Sequence record: PX418924.1
Origin: a phage
Strand: one strand, 5' to 3'
Length of the DNA: 38,505 nt
Positions within the stretch are counted from its first letter, which is position 1. Every line of letters starts with the position of its first letter. The notes under the pieces were generated by a model that saw nothing but the letters and a program-made list of their open reading frames with translations, ran no database searches and was not told where the DNA came from. This document shows positions 995 through 38,505 of the stretch, one piece after another. The translations under genes and the position numbers were made by a program.

Positions 995-1472
995 AACACA
1001 GCCCCTTATGTTTGTCAAAGAGTTCCTGATAGAATGCAGCTTTCTTAAGGTCTTTCTCCATCGTTGCCAGTTCGGATTTCTTACCAGCACGCAGGCGGTA
1101 CTTCAAAATATTCCCAAGGCAGTACCCACGGAACGCCTCGACGGTCATTGACCGGGCGATAACCTCAATGGCTTCCACGTTGTCGAACAGCATGTAGTGG
1201 TTCGGATGGGTCACGTCAGACTTGACTTCTGTCTTCGGTGCTTCCACGTTCGGAGTCTTAACGCCAGCTTTAGGCAGCGGAATCAGGTTGTCAGGAAGAA
1301 CCTCAGCGTGCTGAGTACCGAAGCGAACCTTAACGCGACCTGTGTGCGAGTGACCAGTTACCACTCCGCTCATCCCTAAGATGCGCTTGAGGCCACCGCC
1401 GGAGTATCGTACCACAGAGTTAACCGGGAAGCGAGCCTCTAAGTCTGGTTTGTTCCAATGATGTTGCAGCAT
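981..1472 (-). CDS. 1.7: gp1.7 (nucleotide kinase-like), 163 aa
   Basis: C-terminal NHYMLFDNVEAIEVIARSMTVEAFRGYCLGNILKYRLRAGKKSEL matches T7 gp1.7 as recalled; start overlaps the 1.6 stop. Confidence 0.8.
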   Translation of the reverse strand: MLQHHWNKPDLEARFPVNSVVRYSGGGLKRILGMSGVVTGHSHTGRVKVRFGTQHAEVLPDNLIPLPKAGVKTPNVEAPKTEVKSDVTHPNHYMLFDNVEAIEVIARSMTVEAFRGYCLGNILKYRLRAGKKSELATMEKDLKKAAFYQELFDKHKGLCYDAS

Positions 1473-1729
1473 TACAGCACCTCCTTAATCCACTTAACGA
1501 ACAGACGGATGCGAGGCCAGTAAGTGACCACGGCTTCCAGATGTGGACGCTCTTTATTCATAGCCTTTACGAACTCGCCACGAGTAATCAGCAGGTGAAC
1601 GCAAGGCGATAGCGTGGCTACCGAACCAATCAGCGGCAGCTTGGCGTTGCGCTCAGAGGCCAATACGGTCGAGCGGTCTTTACGGCGAACCGAAAAGATA
1701 CCGTTGGATTTGTTGAAATGTAAACGCAT
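1472..1729 (-). CDS. 1.6: gp1.6, 85 aa
   Basis: ORF in the conserved position and of the expected size; ATG at 1729. Confidence 0.7.
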   Translation of the reverse strand: MRLHFNKSNGIFSVRRKDRSTVLASERNAKLPLIGSVATLSPCVHLLITRGEFVKAMNKERPHLEAVVTYWPRIRLFVKWIKEVL

Positions 1730-1741
1730 GATGTTGTCTCC

Positions 1742-1819
1742 TTAACAATCAGGCCAAATGTTGTCGTCGGCAGCCATTAATCCCAGCGTTGCGACGATAG
1801 CGAATAGGATAAGCCACAT
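1742..1819 (-). CDS. small hydrophobic protein (25 aa), gene 1.5 position
   Basis: ATG at 1819 with GGAG upstream; MWLILFAIVATLGLMAADDNIWPDC; directly downstream of phi1.5. Confidence 0.4.
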   Translation of the reverse strand: MWLILFAIVATLGLMAADDNIWPDC

Positions 1820-1830
1820 GGTGTGTGTCT

Positions 1831-1849
1831 CCTGTTAGTGAGGGTTAAT
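1831..1849 (-). promoter_or_regulatory. T3-type phage RNAP promoter (phi1.5)
   Basis: cctgttagtgagggttaat; overlaps the stop of the HNH ORF. Confidence 0.8.
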
Positions 1850-2308
1850 GGCAGCATCTCGCACGGCTATAGCTTCCTCAAGGGTTCCATAGGTTCCGTG
1901 GGATTTGCGCTTGATACGAACGGCAAAACGTCCGGTTCTCTTGTCAAGGGCAATATACTTCTCGCCACTTAAACAATGAGACCGGACGTCAACATTCGAT
2001 AAGTTAACAGCTTGAGTGACACACCGAAGGTTTTCGATACGGTTATCACTAGGGTTCCTGTTGATGTGGTCAATGACCATACCTTCCGGGATTTCACCGT
2101 GGGTCAACATCCAGACCACACGATGTGCCAGCATTTGTTTGCCACCATAAGAGAGAATCCAGTAGCCATCTTTCCGCTTATACCCTAAAGGTTTACCAGA
2201 GGCGGAAACGACTCCCGAAGGAGCCTCCCGGTCTAACTTATACTTTCTCTTGTGGATTGTCCTCAGTTCCTCGGAAGCAGGTGAATGAGGGGTGTCGCAA
2301 TGAGCCAT
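1835..2308 (-). CDS. HNH-AP2 homing-endonuclease-like protein (start uncertain; ORF is open up to 2395)
   Basis: Motifs GYKRKDGYWILSYGGKQMLAHRVVW and DHINRNPSDNRIENLR (HNH) plus C-terminal AP2-like segment; ATG at 2308 preceded by GGAGG; overlaps the ligase 3' end in another frame. Confidence 0.7.
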   Translation of the reverse strand: MAHCDTPHSPASEELRTIHKRKYKLDREAPSGVVSASGKPLGYKRKDGYWILSYGGKQMLAHRVVWMLTHGEIPEGMVIDHINRNPSDNRIENLRCVTQAVNLSNVDVRSHCLSGEKYIALDKRTGRFAVRIKRKSHGTYGTLEEAIAVRDAAINPH

Positions 2309-3284
2309 CAGGTGTTTCCTCCATATATCCAATCTGGCAGGCCCACCCGTTGTAGTAATCCTCGCCATGTTCTTTAACATTCGCGGTAAACTCATCCATC
2401 AATGCGCGAGAGATGTTGTTGGCATCAACCAGACGACCAGTCTCAAGAAGCACAGAGAACCCGATAACTTTACCTTCGTTTGCAAGACCCGGCGTACCCC
2501 AATTGACACCCTGAATAATACCATCGGCTTCGTCATTAGGCTTGCATTTCCACCAGCCAGACTTCTTGCCTCGCTTGTAGATGCCCTGTGGGTCTTTCAC
2601 AATGAGACCCTCGTGACCTTCGGCACGCTTGGCCTCGTACAGTTCACTCAGCGAATCCATGTCGTAGACCTCGTAGGTCTCAGCGATAAGCCACTCGATT
2701 TCCGGGAAGTATTCAACCAGAAGAGAGCGCATGGCTTCCACATGATACGGCATCAGCAGGTTCTGTACATCGTAGTCCTCGCCAGACTCCGCAATGTGAA
2801 TCGGCATGACAGCATACAGGCGCACGCTCAGGCGCTTAGTGTCCAACTCAAAGGCGGTGCGAACCCGTTTAGCTACTCCCACCTTACGTGGCTTGAGCAT
2901 GTCTGGTGTGACCATTACGTTATGGAACTCGGCGTTATCCTTCTTGAGCCACTTGGTACGCAGCAGGCCAGACCCGGTGTTGAAGTCTACACCTTTGACC
3001 ATCAGTTCGCCATCCAGCATGAAGCCATCCGGGAAGATGCAGCGGTCATCGTTCAGTAGTTGCTGCCAGCGCTTATCGAATCCGTTCAGGTGTTCTAGCG
3101 CCGGGATAAACTTGGACACACGGGACAGCCATGCGGCCTCAGCCACGTTGTCAACCACGATGTTACCGCGCACACCATCGTACTTAATGTCCGCAATCAG
3201 GTAGCCGGAGGTCTCCAGCGCCTTCTTAACGGCAGACTCTACGAATGACACAGCTTTGAATGGGTTGGTATTGAAGATGTTCAT
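2238..3284 (-). CDS. 1.3: ATP-dependent DNA ligase gp1.3
   Basis: NPFKAVSFVESAVKKALETSGYLIADIKYDGVRGNI (KxDG adenylation motif) and C-terminal DGSLRHPSFTCFRGTEDNPQEK match T7 ligase as recalled; start taken at the second ATG (3284) with GAGGA upstream. Confidence 0.93.
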   Translation of the reverse strand: MNIFNTNPFKAVSFVESAVKKALETSGYLIADIKYDGVRGNIVVDNVAEAAWLSRVSKFIPALEHLNGFDKRWQQLLNDDRCIFPDGFMLDGELMVKGVDFNTGSGLLRTKWLKKDNAEFHNVMVTPDMLKPRKVGVAKRVRTAFELDTKRLSVRLYAVMPIHIAESGEDYDVQNLLMPYHVEAMRSLLVEYFPEIEWLIAETYEVYDMDSLSELYEAKRAEGHEGLIVKDPQGIYKRGKKSGWWKCKPNDEADGIIQGVNWGTPGLANEGKVIGFSVLLETGRLVDANNISRALMDEFTANVKEHGEDYYNGWACQIGYMEETPDGSLRHPSFTCFRGTEDNPQEKV

Positions 3285-3307
3285 ACGGTTGTTCCTCATT
3301 GGTTGAA

Positions 3308-3356
3308 AGTTAATCAGTTCGAATCACAAAGGCCACTCGTTAAAGTGACCTTGAGG
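3308..3356 (-). promoter_or_regulatory. RNase III-type processing hairpin (R1.3-like)
   Basis: Conserved module atcacaaaggccac...gtgaccttgagg shared with seven other sites in the window. Confidence 0.6.
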
Positions 3357-3361
3357 ATTCT

Positions 3362-3380
3362 CCTGTTAGTGAGGGTTATT
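3362..3380 (-). promoter_or_regulatory. T3-type phage RNAP promoter (phi1.3)
   Basis: cctgttagtgagggttatt upstream of the ligase gene. Confidence 0.8.
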
Positions 3381-3654
3381 ACTTCCAGTGTTTCAAGTCA
3401 CTGTGAACCTTACGGAGCCATGCAGTCTGCGCGTTTATTTGAACATCGCTGTCGCTATGCTCGAAGGTTCTGGATGCCACCGGATGCCCGGAGCGTGTGA
3501 ACACGCGGAGAACCTCACCGGATGACCTGCACATCTTCGCTGGGTTTTCATAGCTGAATGACTCCACCTTCACGGTCACGTCATGGTCTTCCTGTAGACG
3601 CGCTACCGCATCTTTGTAATCGTTCAGGTTGCCGCTATAGATACGTCCCATCAT
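3379..3654 (-). CDS. 1.2: gp1.2-like protein (dGTPase inhibitor in T7)
   Basis: MMGRIYSGNL... N-terminus and ...DLKHWK C-terminus resemble T7 gp1.2; first ATG at 3654 overlaps the 1.1 stop (TAATG). Confidence 0.75.
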   Translation of the reverse strand: MMGRIYSGNLNDYKDAVARLQEDHDVTVKVESFSYENPAKMCRSSGEVLRVFTRSGHPVASRTFEHSDSDVQINAQTAWLRKVHSDLKHWK

Positions 3655-4245: not shown

Positions 4246-6900
4246 TTATGCAAAGGCAAAGTCAGACTTGAGAATGTCTTGCAGGTTCAGATTTCCTTTC
4301 TTCGGAAGCGGAGGCATCTTGTCCAGTTGGGTCTCATGTAGCTGGTCTGCAAACTGGTCATAGAAGTCTGCCAGCACATCGTTGTTCTCGTAGGTGAGAA
4401 CCATCGTTTCACGCACAGCCTTAAAGAGCTTACCAGCGTCTGCCGGGATAGTCCCGAAGCTGTCATGGATGAGCGCAAAGGACTCAATGCCATACTTCTC
4501 GTGAGCATAAACGACTGTCATGCGGAGGTGGCTACCGTCCTGTGAGTGAACAAAGTTAGGCGCGATGCCAGACTCCTGCTTGTGTGCGTCAATACCTGAA
4601 TCCTTGAGGGTATTAATCGTCGGTTGCAGACGGAATTGCCCTAAGAAAATCATATCGAGACGCTTCTGGAGTGGCTTTCGGTATTCCTGCCAGACCGGGA
4701 AGCCGTCCGGCGTAGTCCAGTGAACCGCGCAACGGTGGCGCAGAATCTCTTTGGTCTTCTTGTCCTTGACCTCAGCAGCCAGCAGCTTAGCGGCAGACTT
4801 GAGCCAGTTCATCGCCTCAACCGCTGCGACTACGGTCACGCTCACCGCGTCCCAAATCAGCTTAGCCATATAGCCAGCCGCTTGGTTAGGTTGGGTGAAC
4901 ATCAAGCCCTTACCGCTGTCAATCGCAGGCTGAATGGTGTCGTCCAGTACCTGTTGACGGAAGCCGAACTCCTTAGAACCGTAAGCCAGCGTCATGACCG
5001 AACGTTTAGTTACGCTACGGGTTACACCATATGCCAGCCACTGTTGTGCCAGCGTTGAGGTTCCCAGCTTGAGCTTCTCAGAGATTTCCCCGGTGTCCTT
5101 GTCGGTCACGGTAATCATCTCGTTAGGTGTGCCGTTGATTGCATCCTGTTTGAGAATCTCGTTTACTTTCTGTGCAACGATTCCGTAAATGTCCTGCACT
5201 GTTTCGCTTGGCAGCAGGTTAACCGCACGACCGCCTACCTCATCGCGGAGCATCGCGGAGAAGTGCTGGATACCGGAGCAAGACCCATCGAACGCCAGCG
5301 GCAGAGAGCAATTGTAGCTCAGACCGTGGTGCGCAACGCCTGCATACTCGAAGCAGAACGCGAGGAAACAGAATGGTGAATCCTGCTCAGCCCACCAAGT
5401 GTTATTGATTGGGTCTTTAGCGCAAGCCAGAATGTCGTCTACGTGCTTCTCAATGAACGCGATGCGCTCAGGGAAAGGAACCTTATCGACACCCGCACAG
5501 TTCGCACCGTGGATTTTCAGCCAGTAGAAACCTTCCTCACCGATTGGCTTGCCTTTAGCGAGGGTCAGCAGACCTTTCGTCATGTCGTTGCCTTGCGGGT
5601 TGAACATCGGCACAGCGTACACACGACCGCGCCAGTCCATGTTGTAAGGGAACCAGATTGCTTTCTTGTTTGCAAACTTGTTGGCCTGCTCCAGCATGAA
5701 CTCTAAGCTGATACGGCGAGACACTCGTGCCTTGTCCAAGCGGTAGATACCAGCGGCTGCTTTCTTCCACTCCTTGAGTGCTGCCTCGTTGGTGTCAATG
5801 TCGTCCGGCTTGGGCGGTAACTCTTGGCGCTCCAGCGATGGAATGTCTGCGACCGGGCAGTTCTTCCAGTTCACAATCTCATTGACAACCGCAAGAACTT
5901 TCTTGTTGATTTTCCATGCGGTGTTCTGTGCGATGTTGACCGCCTTGTAAACTTCTGGCATGTAAACATCCTCATAGCGCATCAAGCCCTTCTTAGAGTG
6001 AGTGCGAACGAGTGCCAAAGGTCTGCGACCGTTAGCCCAATAGCCGCCACCTGTGATTGATACCCAAGGTTTCGGCGGTACGACACACGGTTGGAACATC
6101 GGAGAGATGCCCGCCAGTGCTCCTGCACGCTTCGCTAACACATCGACGTACTCTTGGGCCAGTTGCAGTGCCTCATGGTCAGAGCCTGCGTTGCCTGCGT
6201 TGTGGCGCTGTAATTCCACCAGACCCGTGGATTCAATCAGCATTTCAATCAGGCGAATCCCTACGTGCATCGTGGTTTCCTTGTCCCAGCTAGACCACGC
6301 CTCGCCTCCCAGCAGCCCGCGACCAATCATGTCTGCCTCAACCACCTGCATAAAGGCTTTCTTGTAGACTTGCCCGTGGCGCTTGTTGAGTTGTTCCTCA
6401 ACGTGCTTCTTGAAGTGCTTCGCTTCGAGGTCACGGATGCGACCGAAACGTGCCTCGTCCTCAATGGCTTTCCCCAGCATACCAGCAGCGGCCTGAATGG
6501 TTGTCATGTTCGTGCTGGTCAGTGACGCAAGGATAACCTTGAGTGTGATAAACGCGGACGCCTCCGGCTTGAGTAACTGGAGTGGTGCATAGGCTACGGG
6601 CTTGCGGCCTTTCTTAGAGGCGTACTCTTCGAGCCACTCAACGATACGTGCTGTTAACTTAGGGAGAAGCGTAGCGAGTAATGGCTTAGCGGCTGCGTTA
6701 TCTGCAATCTCACCAGCTTTCGCTTGACGCTCAAGCATCTTGAGGAAGCGGCGCTCGCCTAGCTCATAAGACTCATGCTCTAAAGCCAATTGTTCACGAG
6801 CCAGTGCGCTACCGTAGTGGTCTGCCAGTGTGTTGAACGGGATAGCAGCCAGTTCGATTTCGGAGAAGTCATTCTTTTCGATAGTTTCGATGATGTTCAT
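4246..6900 (-). CDS. 1: Single-subunit DNA-directed RNA polymerase gp1 (884 aa)
   Basis: Full-length match to T3/T7 RNAP as recalled (MNIIETIEKNDFSEIELAAIPFNTLADHYG ... LQDILKSDFAFA); 884 aa is the T3 length. Confidence 0.98.
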   Translation of the reverse strand: MNIIETIEKNDFSEIELAAIPFNTLADHYGSALAREQLALEHESYELGERRFLKMLERQAKAGEIADNAAAKPLLATLLPKLTARIVEWLEEYASKKGRKPVAYAPLQLLKPEASAFITLKVILASLTSTNMTTIQAAAGMLGKAIEDEARFGRIRDLEAKHFKKHVEEQLNKRHGQVYKKAFMQVVEADMIGRGLLGGEAWSSWDKETTMHVGIRLIEMLIESTGLVELQRHNAGNAGSDHEALQLAQEYVDVLAKRAGALAGISPMFQPCVVPPKPWVSITGGGYWANGRRPLALVRTHSKKGLMRYEDVYMPEVYKAVNIAQNTAWKINKKVLAVVNEIVNWKNCPVADIPSLERQELPPKPDDIDTNEAALKEWKKAAAGIYRLDKARVSRRISLEFMLEQANKFANKKAIWFPYNMDWRGRVYAVPMFNPQGNDMTKGLLTLAKGKPIGEEGFYWLKIHGANCAGVDKVPFPERIAFIEKHVDDILACAKDPINNTWWAEQDSPFCFLAFCFEYAGVAHHGLSYNCSLPLAFDGSCSGIQHFSAMLRDEVGGRAVNLLPSETVQDIYGIVAQKVNEILKQDAINGTPNEMITVTDKDTGEISEKLKLGTSTLAQQWLAYGVTRSVTKRSVMTLAYGSKEFGFRQQVLDDTIQPAIDSGKGLMFTQPNQAAGYMAKLIWDAVSVTVVAAVEAMNWLKSAAKLLAAEVKDKKTKEILRHRCAVHWTTPDGFPVWQEYRKPLQKRLDMIFLGQFRLQPTINTLKDSGIDAHKQESGIAPNFVHSQDGSHLRMTVVYAHEKYGIESFALIHDSFGTIPADAGKLFKAVRETMVLTYENNDVLADFYDQFADQLHETQLDKMPPLPKKGNLNLQDILKSDFAFA

Positions 6901-8251: not shown

Positions 8252-8449
8252 TTAGTGCGTAGCAATGTAGAATACTCCTACCTTGTTGGCCTTAAAGCGT
8301 CCGTTACGTTCACGAACCGTAAACCGTGGGATGAATCCCCACTTAAAGTAACTCAGCGTTGCCTTGTGTATTGCCAGACCGCGCTTAAAGTCTCGCATAA
8401 AGTACATAGCGATGCACAGATAGACCAGTGCGATAAAGAGAATCATCAT
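8252..8449 (-). CDS. Small early membrane protein (65 aa)
   Basis: MMILFIALVYLCIAMYF hydrophobic N-terminus; ATGA start/stop overlap with the upstream ORF. Confidence 0.5.
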   Translation of the reverse strand: MMILFIALVYLCIAMYFMRDFKRGLAIHKATLSYFKWGFIPRFTVRERNGRFKANKVGVFYIATH

Positions 8450-8604
8450 GCGTGTTTCACCAGTTCGATAGCCTCGCGGCCTCGCCCTTCTGCGTCCAAG
8501 TGTTCCATGAGTTTAACCATCTTGCGATGATAGCGAGCGGCCTTGCGTGACTCAGAGTACCAGCCAGCGACCGCAAAGAGTGCGATAGTGATAAATATAG
8601 CCAT
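8446..8604 (-). CDS. Small early membrane protein (52 aa)
   Basis: ATG at 8604 with AGGAGG 7 nt upstream; MAIFITIALFAVAGWY transmembrane-like segment. Confidence 0.55.
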   Translation of the reverse strand: MAIFITIALFAVAGWYSESRKAARYHRKMVKLMEHLDAEGRGREAIELVKHA

Positions 8605-8623
8605 TGCTAATCCTCCTGTTATG

Positions 8624-8824
8624 TCAATCATTCCAGCCCGCACATGTTGCTTGGTGTAGCACACAGGCTTGATAATCCTCTTGTGCTAAAATCGGGTTTA
8701 CCCAATGTGTGACCTGTTTACCGTATCGCACAACGTAGGTGCTTCCCATTGACCCGTGGTAATACTCACGCAGTGTTACGGTGCATTGGCCTTCTATTTT
8801 AGATGTTGCCAGTAGTTTACTCAT
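8624..8824 (-). CDS. Small early protein (66 aa), function unknown
   Basis: First ATG (8824) downstream of the R0.5 hairpin; upstream part of the ORF is occupied by the hairpin. Confidence 0.45.
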   Translation of the reverse strand: MSKLLATSKIEGQCTVTLREYYHGSMGSTYVVRYGKQVTHWVNPILAQEDYQACVLHQATCAGWND

Positions 8825-8850
8825 GGTGTTAGTCCTATAGCGTGCTAAGT

Positions 8851-32656: not shown

Positions 32657-32675
32657 AATAATTTCTCCTATAGAA

Positions 32676-38251: not shown

Positions 38252-38505
38252 TAGAAGTCCTCGTCGTCATCCGGGGTTTCTTCGTGCTCGTCTTCCTGCC
38301 ACTCCTGCTCATCGCGGGACTGACGGGATTCACTCGCAGTGTAACCTCCATCTTCGACTTCATCGGCCCACTCATCTTCACTGCCACCACCGAAGGTAGC
38401 CAGTTCTACCAGCATCACGGATTCCAGTTGCAGCTTGACGCTTGCGCCCACAGCGGTGTTCCACTTGTAAGGCACCAGAGAGTATTTCACTTTCAGCTTA
38501 GAGCC
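38251..38505 (-). CDS. 2.5: ssDNA-binding protein gp2.5, C-terminal part (upstream portion lies at the window start; 38379-38505 duplicates 1-127)
   Basis: ...KYSLVPYKWNTAVGASVKLQLESVMLVELATFGGG plus acidic tail ending DDDEDF, as in T7 gp2.5. Confidence 0.9.
   Translation of the reverse strand, partial: GSKLKVKYSLVPYKWNTAVGASVKLQLESVMLVELATFGGGSEDEWADEVEDGGYTASESRQSRDEQEWQEDEHEETPDDDEDF

Follow-up and report, generated by a model that had tools for sequence, protein, structure and literature searches.

A gene lying between the DNA ligase gene and promoter phi1.5 of a T3-like phage is best read as an HNH(N)-AP2 homing endonuclease gene of the free-standing kind, orthologous to phiYeO3-12 gene 1.45, and we put the probability of this reading, including the homing cycle and expression proposed here, at roughly 80%. 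According to this proposal the HNH and ligase genes would be co-transcribed; neither a promoter nor a recognisable terminator separates them. Translation would begin at ATG 2308, with the GGAGG provided by ligase codons, and would pass the ligase stop and a hairpin at the position of the early terminator TE before ending in the phi1.5 promoter. The predicted 157-residue product combines an I-HmuI-like His-Me finger core with a C-terminal AP2-type DNA-binding domain. In a mixed infection the enzyme would nick or cut the allele lacking the gene near the ligase/TE/phi1.5 junction, and repair from the HNH-bearing genome would copy in the gene and, with it, some 350 nt from the 3' part of the ligase gene. 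From this point on, we refer to the whole stretch of DNA analysed (record PX418924.1, 38,505 nucleotides) as the window.

The locus and the predicted protein

The window is a T3-like (Teetrevirus) genome, reverse-complemented and circularly permuted, whose ends share a 127-nt repeat that is an assembly artefact. It contains 12 T3-type promoters, all on the minus strand, where none is expected by chance. The features of the locus are collected in Table 1. The 186-residue ORF reported by the first-pass annotation is present along with the motifs quoted for it, and its stop, described there as abutting phi1.5, is a TAA (1837-1835) that falls inside the promoter. The same annotation had remarked on the small interval between genes 5 and 5.5, and T3 gene 5.3 (about 310 nt) is indeed missing there. 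Its argument that the insert roughly explains the excess of this genome over the length of T3 does not hold, as the gain of about 340 nt at the HNH locus must be set against the loss of gene 5.3, further indels elsewhere and the end repeat.

Table 1. Positions of features at the ligase-HNH locus of the window
Feature	Position	Strand	Remarks
ATP-dependent DNA ligase gene (gene 1.3)	2238..3284	-	Pfam DNA_ligase_A_M and DNA_ligase_C; annotated as ligase in all relatives
Ligase 3' third co-varying with HNH gene presence	2238..2589	-	Putative co-conversion tract or immune allele
Full ORF	1835..2395	-	186 aa
GGAGG ribosome-binding site	2318..2322	-	9 nt upstream of ATG 2308; within ligase codons Met-Glu-Glu
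Predicted HNH(N)-AP2 endonuclease gene	1835..2308	-	157 aa plus stop; preferred reading; phiYeO3-12 gene 1.45 orthologue
Overlap of HNH ORF (aa 1-24) with ligase 3' end, different frames	2238..2308	-	71 nt
Ligase stop codon	2240-2238	-
Hairpin GGCUCC-UUCG-GGAGUC inside ORF	2210..2225	-	Encodes A-P-S-G-V; at T3 TE position
Internal in-frame ATG (aa 59)	2132..2134	-	Start in several GenBank records (99 aa); rejected
HNH_3 catalytic core (aa 60-102: HRVVW...DHINRNPSDNRIENLR...N)	2003..2131	-	Pfam E=1.9e-21
AP2-like DNA-binding domain (aa about 117-154; three strands and a helix)	1847..1960	-	AF2; Pfam matches of homologues
T3-type promoter phi1.5	1828..1850	-	Holds last five HNH codons and stop

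The product matches Pfam HNH_3 (PF13392) at 75.5-75.9 bits against a cut-off of 24.8 (E about 2e-21) and the PHROG family phrog_99, 'HNH endonuclease', at E=4.6e-45, while an NCBIfam profile search of the protein returned no match. D80, H81, N93, L94 and R95 do not vary across 35 homologues, and N102 and N105 hardly do; the catalytic Asp-His, the structural Asn and the metal-binding Asn are all conserved. An AF2 model (pLDDT 89.9) places strands at residues 77-81 and 94-98 and a helix at 99-105, a predicted beta-beta-alpha-metal fold. The top PDB match by Foldseek is I-HmuI (1u3e, E=8e-5), which the family profile also matches, at E=3.3e-10.

Evidence for the AP2 fold is weak from the single sequence, which reaches only 15.2 bits against the Pfam AP2 (PF00847) cut-off of 33.3 (E=0.028), but the fold is well supported at the level of the family. 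Pfam AP2 is matched by 24 of the 35 aligned homologues (best E=8e-10), and the family profile finds the plant AP2/ERF structures WRI1 (E=3.7e-10), TEM1 (9.5e-6), ERF096 and AtERF1. In the AF2 model this part forms strands at 119-122, 127-132 and 135-140 followed by a helix at 143-154, and Foldseek superposes it on the WRI1 AP2 domain with an rmsd of 2.0 Å over 50 columns (probability 0.87). These results support an HNH(N)-AP2 homing-endonuclease-like product, presumably an active nuclease. They agree with the identification in the first-pass annotation, for which a profile search gave E=2.4e-21 with HNH_3 and the AP2 matches come at family level.

Start codon and selection

The in-frame upstream start candidates are ATG 2395, 2380, 2368 and 2308 and TTG 2332. 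The first-pass annotation had listed the four ATG codons, correctly placing them inside the ligase gene with GGAGG upstream of 2308, but had missed the TTG. Its statement that no start lies between the ligase stop and the N-terminal motif was borne out: the HNH frame holds no ATG, GTG or TTG from the ligase stop to the GYKRKDGYW motif, and the in-frame ATG 2134 comes directly 3' of it.

ATG 2308 is in a frame other than that of the ligase gene, whose end it precedes by 70 nt. An ATG occurs at this -70 position in 16 of 16 diverged HNH-bearing lineages as opposed to 32 of 72 HNH-less ligases (Fisher p=1.6e-5, the lineages not being independent). The GGAGG is found in 15 of the 16 lineages but also in 63 of the 72 HNH-less ligase genes, which implies that the ligase gene supplies the ribosome-binding site. 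T3-like phages without the gene have GGAAG and GAC in place of GGAGG and ATG. The idea that both elements were made by synonymous ligase changes in carriers only was rejected on these same HNH-less counts, which include T7. Only the 16/16 conservation of the -70 ATG in carriers stays informative among the ligase comparisons, and ATG 2308 is the best-supported candidate start.

Downstream of the ligase stop, dN/dS is 0.05-0.47, with values of 0.16-0.47 for residues 25-59 and 0.05-0.09 for residues 60-152 (the latter from two comparisons with unsaturated synonymous change). In the 71-nt overlap, by contrast, dN/dS in the HNH frame is about 1 (0.45-3.3), and third positions of ligase codons are no better conserved in carriers (pairwise difference 0.470, against 0.424). 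Dual-coding constraint in the overlap was rejected on these grounds, and the overlap is therefore taken as a start site plus leader rather than a sequence-constrained domain. Because the first 24 residues show no constraint in the HNH frame, the start call depends, indirectly, on conservation of the ATG and on the selection downstream of it. It is further supported by distant members of the family, whose N-terminal helix and YDPxxG motif align with residues 10-33.

Three other accounts of the reading frame were weighed. Several records (GP-5, Patroon and ZCEA1) annotate a 99-residue protein from the internal ATG 2134, the open frame upstream being then fortuitous. This codon is the first canonical start past the ligase stop, has GGTGG 7 nt upstream and stands just ahead of the Pfam HNH_3 match. 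Nevertheless, translation from it is very improbable as the true reading, since the ATG is missing in JeanTinguely, Ebrios, KP32, KMI1, KKP3708 and others, and KQM is replaced by KHV, KHI, KHL or KHQ in lineages other than that of the window. Moreover, the 35 codons upstream are under selection (the 0.16-0.47 noted above), the GYKRKDGYW and PSG motifs encoded there are found family-wide, and AF2 models residues 11-59 within the fold at block-mean pLDDT of 84-96.

A decaying pseudogene, which lost its own start on insertion beside the ligase gene, would explain why no start codon separates the conserved motif from the ligase stop, and remnants are known in other phages. It is scarcely credible for a frame that is intact, retains its catalytic residues, evolves at a dN/dS well under 1 and keeps a conserved upstream ATG and GGAGG site.

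Finally, there is next to no chance that ribosomes shift to the +1 frame close to the ligase stop and so produce a ligase-HNH fusion. The HNH frame is +1 relative to the ligase and open for 161 nt within it, yet this stretch is bounded by a TGA that conserved ligase codons fix, no slippery or shift-prone motif was seen, and an independent conserved ATG with GGAGG is the simpler account of expression.

Distribution, the replaced flank and the early terminator

Among roughly 59 records with at least 90% identity in the ligase region, about 12 carry the block, which is missing in T3, 6996, Keithsmous, AP5 and many others of that set. Its absence from canonical T3 is as the first-pass annotation had supposed. 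Diverged homologues (40-86% amino acid identity) overlap the ligase 3' end at the same site in at least seven Studiervirinae genera, among them Teetrevirus, Teseptimavirus, Przondovirus (KP32 gene 9), Kayfunavirus (CLB_P1 '1.45'), Berlinvirus and Ningirsuvirus, as well as in Erwinia phages vB_EamP-L1 and pEp_SNUABM_11, and every one of them begins at the -70 position of the ligase gene. A scan of IMG/VR with the HNH clade profile added one ligase-adjacent member, L097, the other matches being distant HNH genes in unrelated contexts. Remnants occur as well: L019 and L023 have an internal deletion, and L029 is degenerate.

Comparison with close relatives reveals that the ligase flank is replaced along with the gene. 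Identity to an HNH-less relative, 98-100% as far as about 2590, is about 78% in the 3' end of the ligase gene and 98% again from the phi1.5 promoter. To illustrate, the window and the HNH-less phage 6996 have 2 mismatches in 2900-2590 but 78 in 2589-2241. The edges, an abrupt drop near 2589 on the left and the phi1.5 promoter at 1850 on the right, were taken from pairwise alignments, as MAFFT alignment with T3 misplaced T3 sequence across the insert. Over 2600..1801 the carriers are 96-100% identical to each other. Over 2400-2201 the window is 86-89% identical to HNH-bearing phages of other genera but 73-76% identical to an HNH-less phage of its own genus. The HNH block itself is 98.4-100% identical between phages whose flanks are in parts 81-95% identical. 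From these alignments, window positions of about 2589..1851 look like a mobile block of roughly 740 bp, in which the gene appears to travel with the last third of the ligase gene.

Patchy presence in near-identical phages, together with the replaced flank, fits a mobile element. Of the first-pass suggestion of a mobile insertion at an unusual site, mobility thus stands, but the site is not unusual, being shared with phiYeO3-12 and the genera listed above. The replaced ligase block could also be the product of ordinary modular recombination between phages, without endonuclease-driven conversion. Likewise, the old association with the ligase gene, in homologues of 40% amino acid identity at the same site, also fits a retained, useful gene. 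Rather than purely homing for its own sake, such a gene might help the phage to fight co-infecting relatives or supply a nuclease for DNA metabolism. Homologues that diverged keep their full length as well as their position, and the core is under the strong purifying selection described above. That the gene is kept for such use is nonetheless unlikely, given that it is missing from most close relatives, that deleted and decayed copies are known, and that the block is nearly identical in phages that are otherwise diverged, a sign of recent horizontal spread. Phage competition and homing are compatible, and neither rules out the other.

A terminator scan over 1400-3400 of the window found nothing, although the same scan detects TE in T3, and no TE-like sequence was found anywhere in the window. 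Judged by these searches, the canonical early terminator TE is missing from the window lineage. The hairpin at 2225..2210, which is without a T-rich tail, has a fold z-score of only -0.67. Its pairs are retained in 86.5% of cells across 16 lineages (1/500 shuffles). These pair counts are suggestive of a functional TE, although the compensatory changes come from a single clade; the phiYeO3-12 record labels the same hairpin 'putative TE'. In the L026, EamP-L1 and SNUABM_11 lineage, a full terminator-like hairpin with a T-run and compensatory stem changes lies inside the ORF, and the terminator scan reports a TE-like site within the ORF of L026. W2B, PVN09, P483 and PE3-1 have a TE-like terminator downstream of the HNH gene.

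It is conceivable, if rather doubtful, that the endonuclease gene overprints the early/middle boundary and that the hairpin is kept both as codons and as RNA structure, an attenuated TE; the in-ORF hairpin of the L026 lineage would fit such overprinting. Host-polymerase transcripts would then mostly end within the nuclease gene, the full enzyme would be encoded solely by phage-polymerase read-through transcripts, and the early/middle switch would be altered in carriers. The loss of a recognisable TE in carriers poses a small question on early transcription and may be relevant to T3-like phages that are engineered or used in therapy.

Comparison with known systems

HNN/HNH-AP2 genes form an established class among the homing endonuclease genes of phages, with a history of gain followed by decay (PMC2248197). 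Phages commonly carry genes of this type, and the present one already appears in the phiYeO3-12 record; the homing endonuclease reading brings little that is conceptually new. A literature search for gene 1.45 returned nothing relevant, with no report of activity, target or homing. The value is chiefly in annotation: comparisons place the start at an ATG inside the ligase gene, whereas many GenBank records shorten the gene (to 99 residues, or 63-118 in other genera) or omit it. In addition, the ligase 3' tract of roughly 350 nt is a concrete place to seek the putative cleavage site.

By sequence and position, the gene is evidently one already catalogued, as the orthologue of gene 1.45 in the Yersinia phage phiYeO3-12 (AJ251805 / NC_001271; 'homologous to HNH endonuclease'). 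The two occupy the same slot between gene 1.3 and phi1.5 and share the 157-residue reading, the -70 start, the hairpin and the stop within the promoter, with 99.7% nucleotide and 99.4% amino acid identity (one difference, K/R). The phage backbones differ, the whole 1.9-kb region being 93% identical. KP32 gene 9, CLB_P1 gene 1.45, JeanTinguely bas64_0017, Ebrios gp09 and the genes of vB_EamP-L1 and PVN09 belong to the same clade, with the same -70 start and domain order. Among these ligase-adjacent genes of the Studiervirinae, the C-terminal end is fitted to each phage's own promoter or terminator.

Likeness to I-HmuI (PDB 1u3e), the nicking HNH homing endonuclease of Bacillus phage SPO1 and the best match by both structure and profile, extends over residues 29-122 or so, with 37% identity over 89 columns, and both have a His-Me finger with an H-N-N catalytic pattern. 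I-HmuI, however, is intron-encoded and has a helix-turn-helix C-terminal domain, whereas the window gene is free-standing and ends in an AP2-type domain. The HNN/HNH-AP2 endonucleases of Xp10, OP1, Xop411, RB16, RB43 and other phages have the same two-domain architecture and the boxes HR..W, DNR and NLR (PMC2248197, PMC2993671), and they show the same pattern of gain and decay, with truncated remnants. Genes of the Xp10 type are described as scattered, without conserved flanks, while the clade of the window gene keeps to one site, the 3' end of the ligase gene, which also contains its start region.

Identity and distribution of the gene after the ligase

The window holds a T3-like (Teetrevirus) genome in reverse complement and circularly permuted, and all its genes and all 12 T3-type promoters lie on the minus strand; the closest records in the phage collection are about 97% identical to it, and none is identical. 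An exact 127 nt repeat at both ends (1-127 and 38379-38505) looks like an assembler overlap artefact, and the true unique length, with the terminal repeat in single copy, looks to be 38,378 nt.

Features of the window around the HNH gene
Feature	Coordinates	Strand	Remark
RNA polymerase gene	6900..4246	-	
Ligase gene (gene 1.3)	3284..2238	-	stop codon 2240-2238
HNH ORF	1835..2395	-	stop 1837-1835, inside phi1.5 promoter
Hairpin in place of TE	2225..2210		inside HNH ORF
phi1.5 promoter	1850..1828	-	

The HNH ORF, including its stop within the promoter, is confirmed as the first-pass annotation described it, and the identity proposed there, an HNH-AP2 homing-endonuclease-like gene, is borne out by profiles and a structural model. 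Pfam HNH_3 is matched far over cut-off (E = 2.4e-21); the AP2 match of this ORF alone is under cut-off (E = 0.028), and AP2 is matched by 24 of 35 aligned homologues. The N-terminal two-thirds of a profile of the family finds I-HmuI (E = 3.3e-10), while the C-terminal third finds plant AP2/ERF structures, WRI1 (3.7e-10) followed by TEM1, ERF096 and AtERF1. The AlphaFold model (pLDDT 89.9) has a beta-beta-alpha core and a C-terminal domain of three strands and a helix; its top PDB match is I-HmuI, and the WRI1 AP2 domain superposes on it at 2.0 Å over 50 columns. Residues D80, H81, N93, L94 and R95 are invariant in the homologue alignment, and N102 nearly so. The PHROG family phrog_34032 (a 70-aa 'endonuclease') matches aa 1-37 only (window 2198-2308; E = 1.8e-12), and truncated or remnant ORFs of the gene were probably its source.

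In megablast, phiYeO3-12 carries the equivalent gene in the same position. This is gene 1.45, annotated 'homologous to HNH endonuclease', with 157 aa, a start inside the ligase gene and a product 99.4% identical to that of the window. The gene is already known and annotated; the present comparison adds support for its start codon, sets limits to the mobile block, and records the lack of a canonical early terminator (TE). By megablast, the gene also lies at the same place in LL2, GP-5, Patroon, ZCEA1, ViciousJeremy, VAC1, ESh7 and mtp4, and VSG32 matches the HNH block alone. Megablast of the region and annotated records show it missing from most other close relatives and from T3, as had been supposed. 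The claim that the insertion site is unusual is refuted, since homologues (DNA 70-79%, protein 40-86%) directly follow ligase in Teseptimavirus (JeanTinguely, Ebrios, PVN09), Przondovirus (KP32 gene 9, KMI1, KKP3708), Kayfunavirus (PE3-1, CLB_P1 '1.45', RDN8.1), Berlinvirus (P483), Ningirsuvirus (W2B) and Erwinia phages (vB_EamP-L1, pEp_SNUABM_11). Of the 96 tblastn hits at E <= 1e-20, an even sample of 60 records was examined, and in most of these the match overlaps the annotated ligase. Besides its 1.45-type gene, Klebsiella phage Patroon has another HNH endonuclease gene of a different kind, located between gene 1.2 and ligase (348-764 of its locus).

The argument that the insert explains the excess of genome length over T3 fails, given the absence of T3 gene 5.3 and other indels. 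Gene 5.3 (306 nt, in the DNA polymerase/gene 5.5 interval) is missing at about 32672-32675, so that relative to T3 one small gene is gained and another lost. In the early region, about 380 nt at 8434-8850 lack a T3 counterpart (T3 1406-1445) and hold small minus-strand ORFs, such as an 83-aa ORF beginning MSKLLATSKIEG.

Translation start

As first reported, there is no in-frame ATG, GTG or TTG from the ligase stop to the GYKRKDGYW motif. Candidate starts further upstream are 2395, 2380, 2368, TTG 2332 and 2308, the last with GGAGG 9 nt upstream; the next in-frame ATG, 2134, is just past the motif and is not conserved among lineages. An ATG stands exactly 70 nt before the ligase gene end in all 16 diverged HNH+ lineages examined, with GGAGG upstream in 15. 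The GGAGG, supplied by ligase Met-Glu-Glu codons, is as common in HNH-less ligases (63/72). The -70 ATG, which requires Asp codon GAT rather than GAC, occurs in only 32 of those 72 (Fisher p = 1.6e-5, the lineages not being independent).

Nei-Gojobori comparisons of the window with eleven lineages (157-aa numbering) give dN/dS of about 1 (0.45-3.3), hence no HNH-frame constraint, for aa 1-24, which overlap ligase; 0.16-0.47, or purifying selection, for aa 25-59; and 0.05-0.09 for aa 60-152, where only two comparisons were estimable and synonymous sites were saturated in the others. This purifying selection indicates that the codons from the ligase stop to ATG 2134 are translated. Within the overlap, no added constraint could be seen at ligase third positions, and residues 1-24 look to be a leader that takes its sequence from ligase. 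Distant relatives start 10-14 residues before the (Y/F)K(L)D..PSG motif, aligned with aa 23-33 of the product.

Judged from sequence conservation, the correct product is the one of 157 aa. The 99-aa version (GP-5, Patroon, ZCEA1) is an annotation error, ATG 2134 being unconserved and the upstream codons constrained; so are the still shorter products called in other genera (63-118 aa) and the lack of any annotation in W2B, SNUABM_11 and several Klebsiella phages. GenBank calls are inconsistent (157 aa, 99 aa, 63-118 aa or unannotated in loci L003, L004, L008, L014 and L175-L180), and the conserved ATG inside ligase is often missed. In HNH-less phage 6996 (about 1392-1530 of its locus), the same alternative frame has no stop between the 3' end of ligase and the promoter TAA, TE included, and a 1-nt difference breaks it in T3; its openness in 6996 is judged to be chance.

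The early terminator

T3, 6996, Keithsmous, AP5 and T7 have a canonical TE between ligase and the next promoter. In its place the window has a GGCUCC-UUCG-GGAGUC hairpin, which encodes A-P-S-G-V and lacks a T-rich tail. A simple scan of 1400-3400 found no terminator; the identical scan picks up TE in T3 and, in the L026 lineage, a TE-like terminator within the ORF. No TE-like sequence was found across the whole window. For its composition, the hairpin region folds in an ordinary way (z = -0.67); over 16 lineages, its six pairs remain intact in 86.5% of cells, with compensatory changes all from one clade. In W2B, PVN09, P483 and PE3-1 the HNH stop is instead followed by a TE-like hairpin, so that terminator and nuclease gene do not come in the same order in every lineage. 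In Dickeya phage W2B (about 1050-1100 of its locus), a complete TE hairpin has the HNH stop codon in its loop. Carriers of the window lineage may lack efficient early termination.

The probable mobile block

From 3300 to 2601 the window is 98-100% identical to the HNH-less Teetrevirus 6996; mismatches number 2 in 2900-2590 and then 78 in 2589-2241 (22%), and identity is back to 98% at the phi1.5 promoter. The interval from ligase stop to promoter is replaced, and measures 387 nt, versus 47-48 nt, with TE, in T3 and 6996. Over 2600..1801, carriers share 96-100% identity with the window, compared with values down to 81-88% elsewhere in ligase and genes 1.6-1.7; at 2400-2201 carriers of other genera reach 86-89%, versus 73-76% for 6996. 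A homing endonuclease gene with a co-conversion tract on one side, or with a flank immune to cleavage, usually leaves such a pattern, which does not by itself establish homing. Remnants also occur after ligase: two KP32-like loci (L019 and L023, both 1966-2080) retain the 5' hairpin and roughly 20 codons at the 3' end but not the part between, and a T7-promoter phage (L029, 1966-2140) has a degenerate gene.

The HNH gene would be transcribed together with ligase and translated from the start internal to it, giving an I-HmuI-like nuclease that the AP2 domain would tether to DNA. By analogy with characterised free-standing phage endonucleases, the enzyme may cut or nick the empty allele near the ligase/TE/phi1.5 junction, and recombinational repair may then copy in the HNH gene and the 3' third of ligase. 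Among free-standing phage homing endonuclease genes, those for HNN/HNH-AP2 enzymes form a recognised class, gained and then decaying (PMC2248197, PMC2993671).
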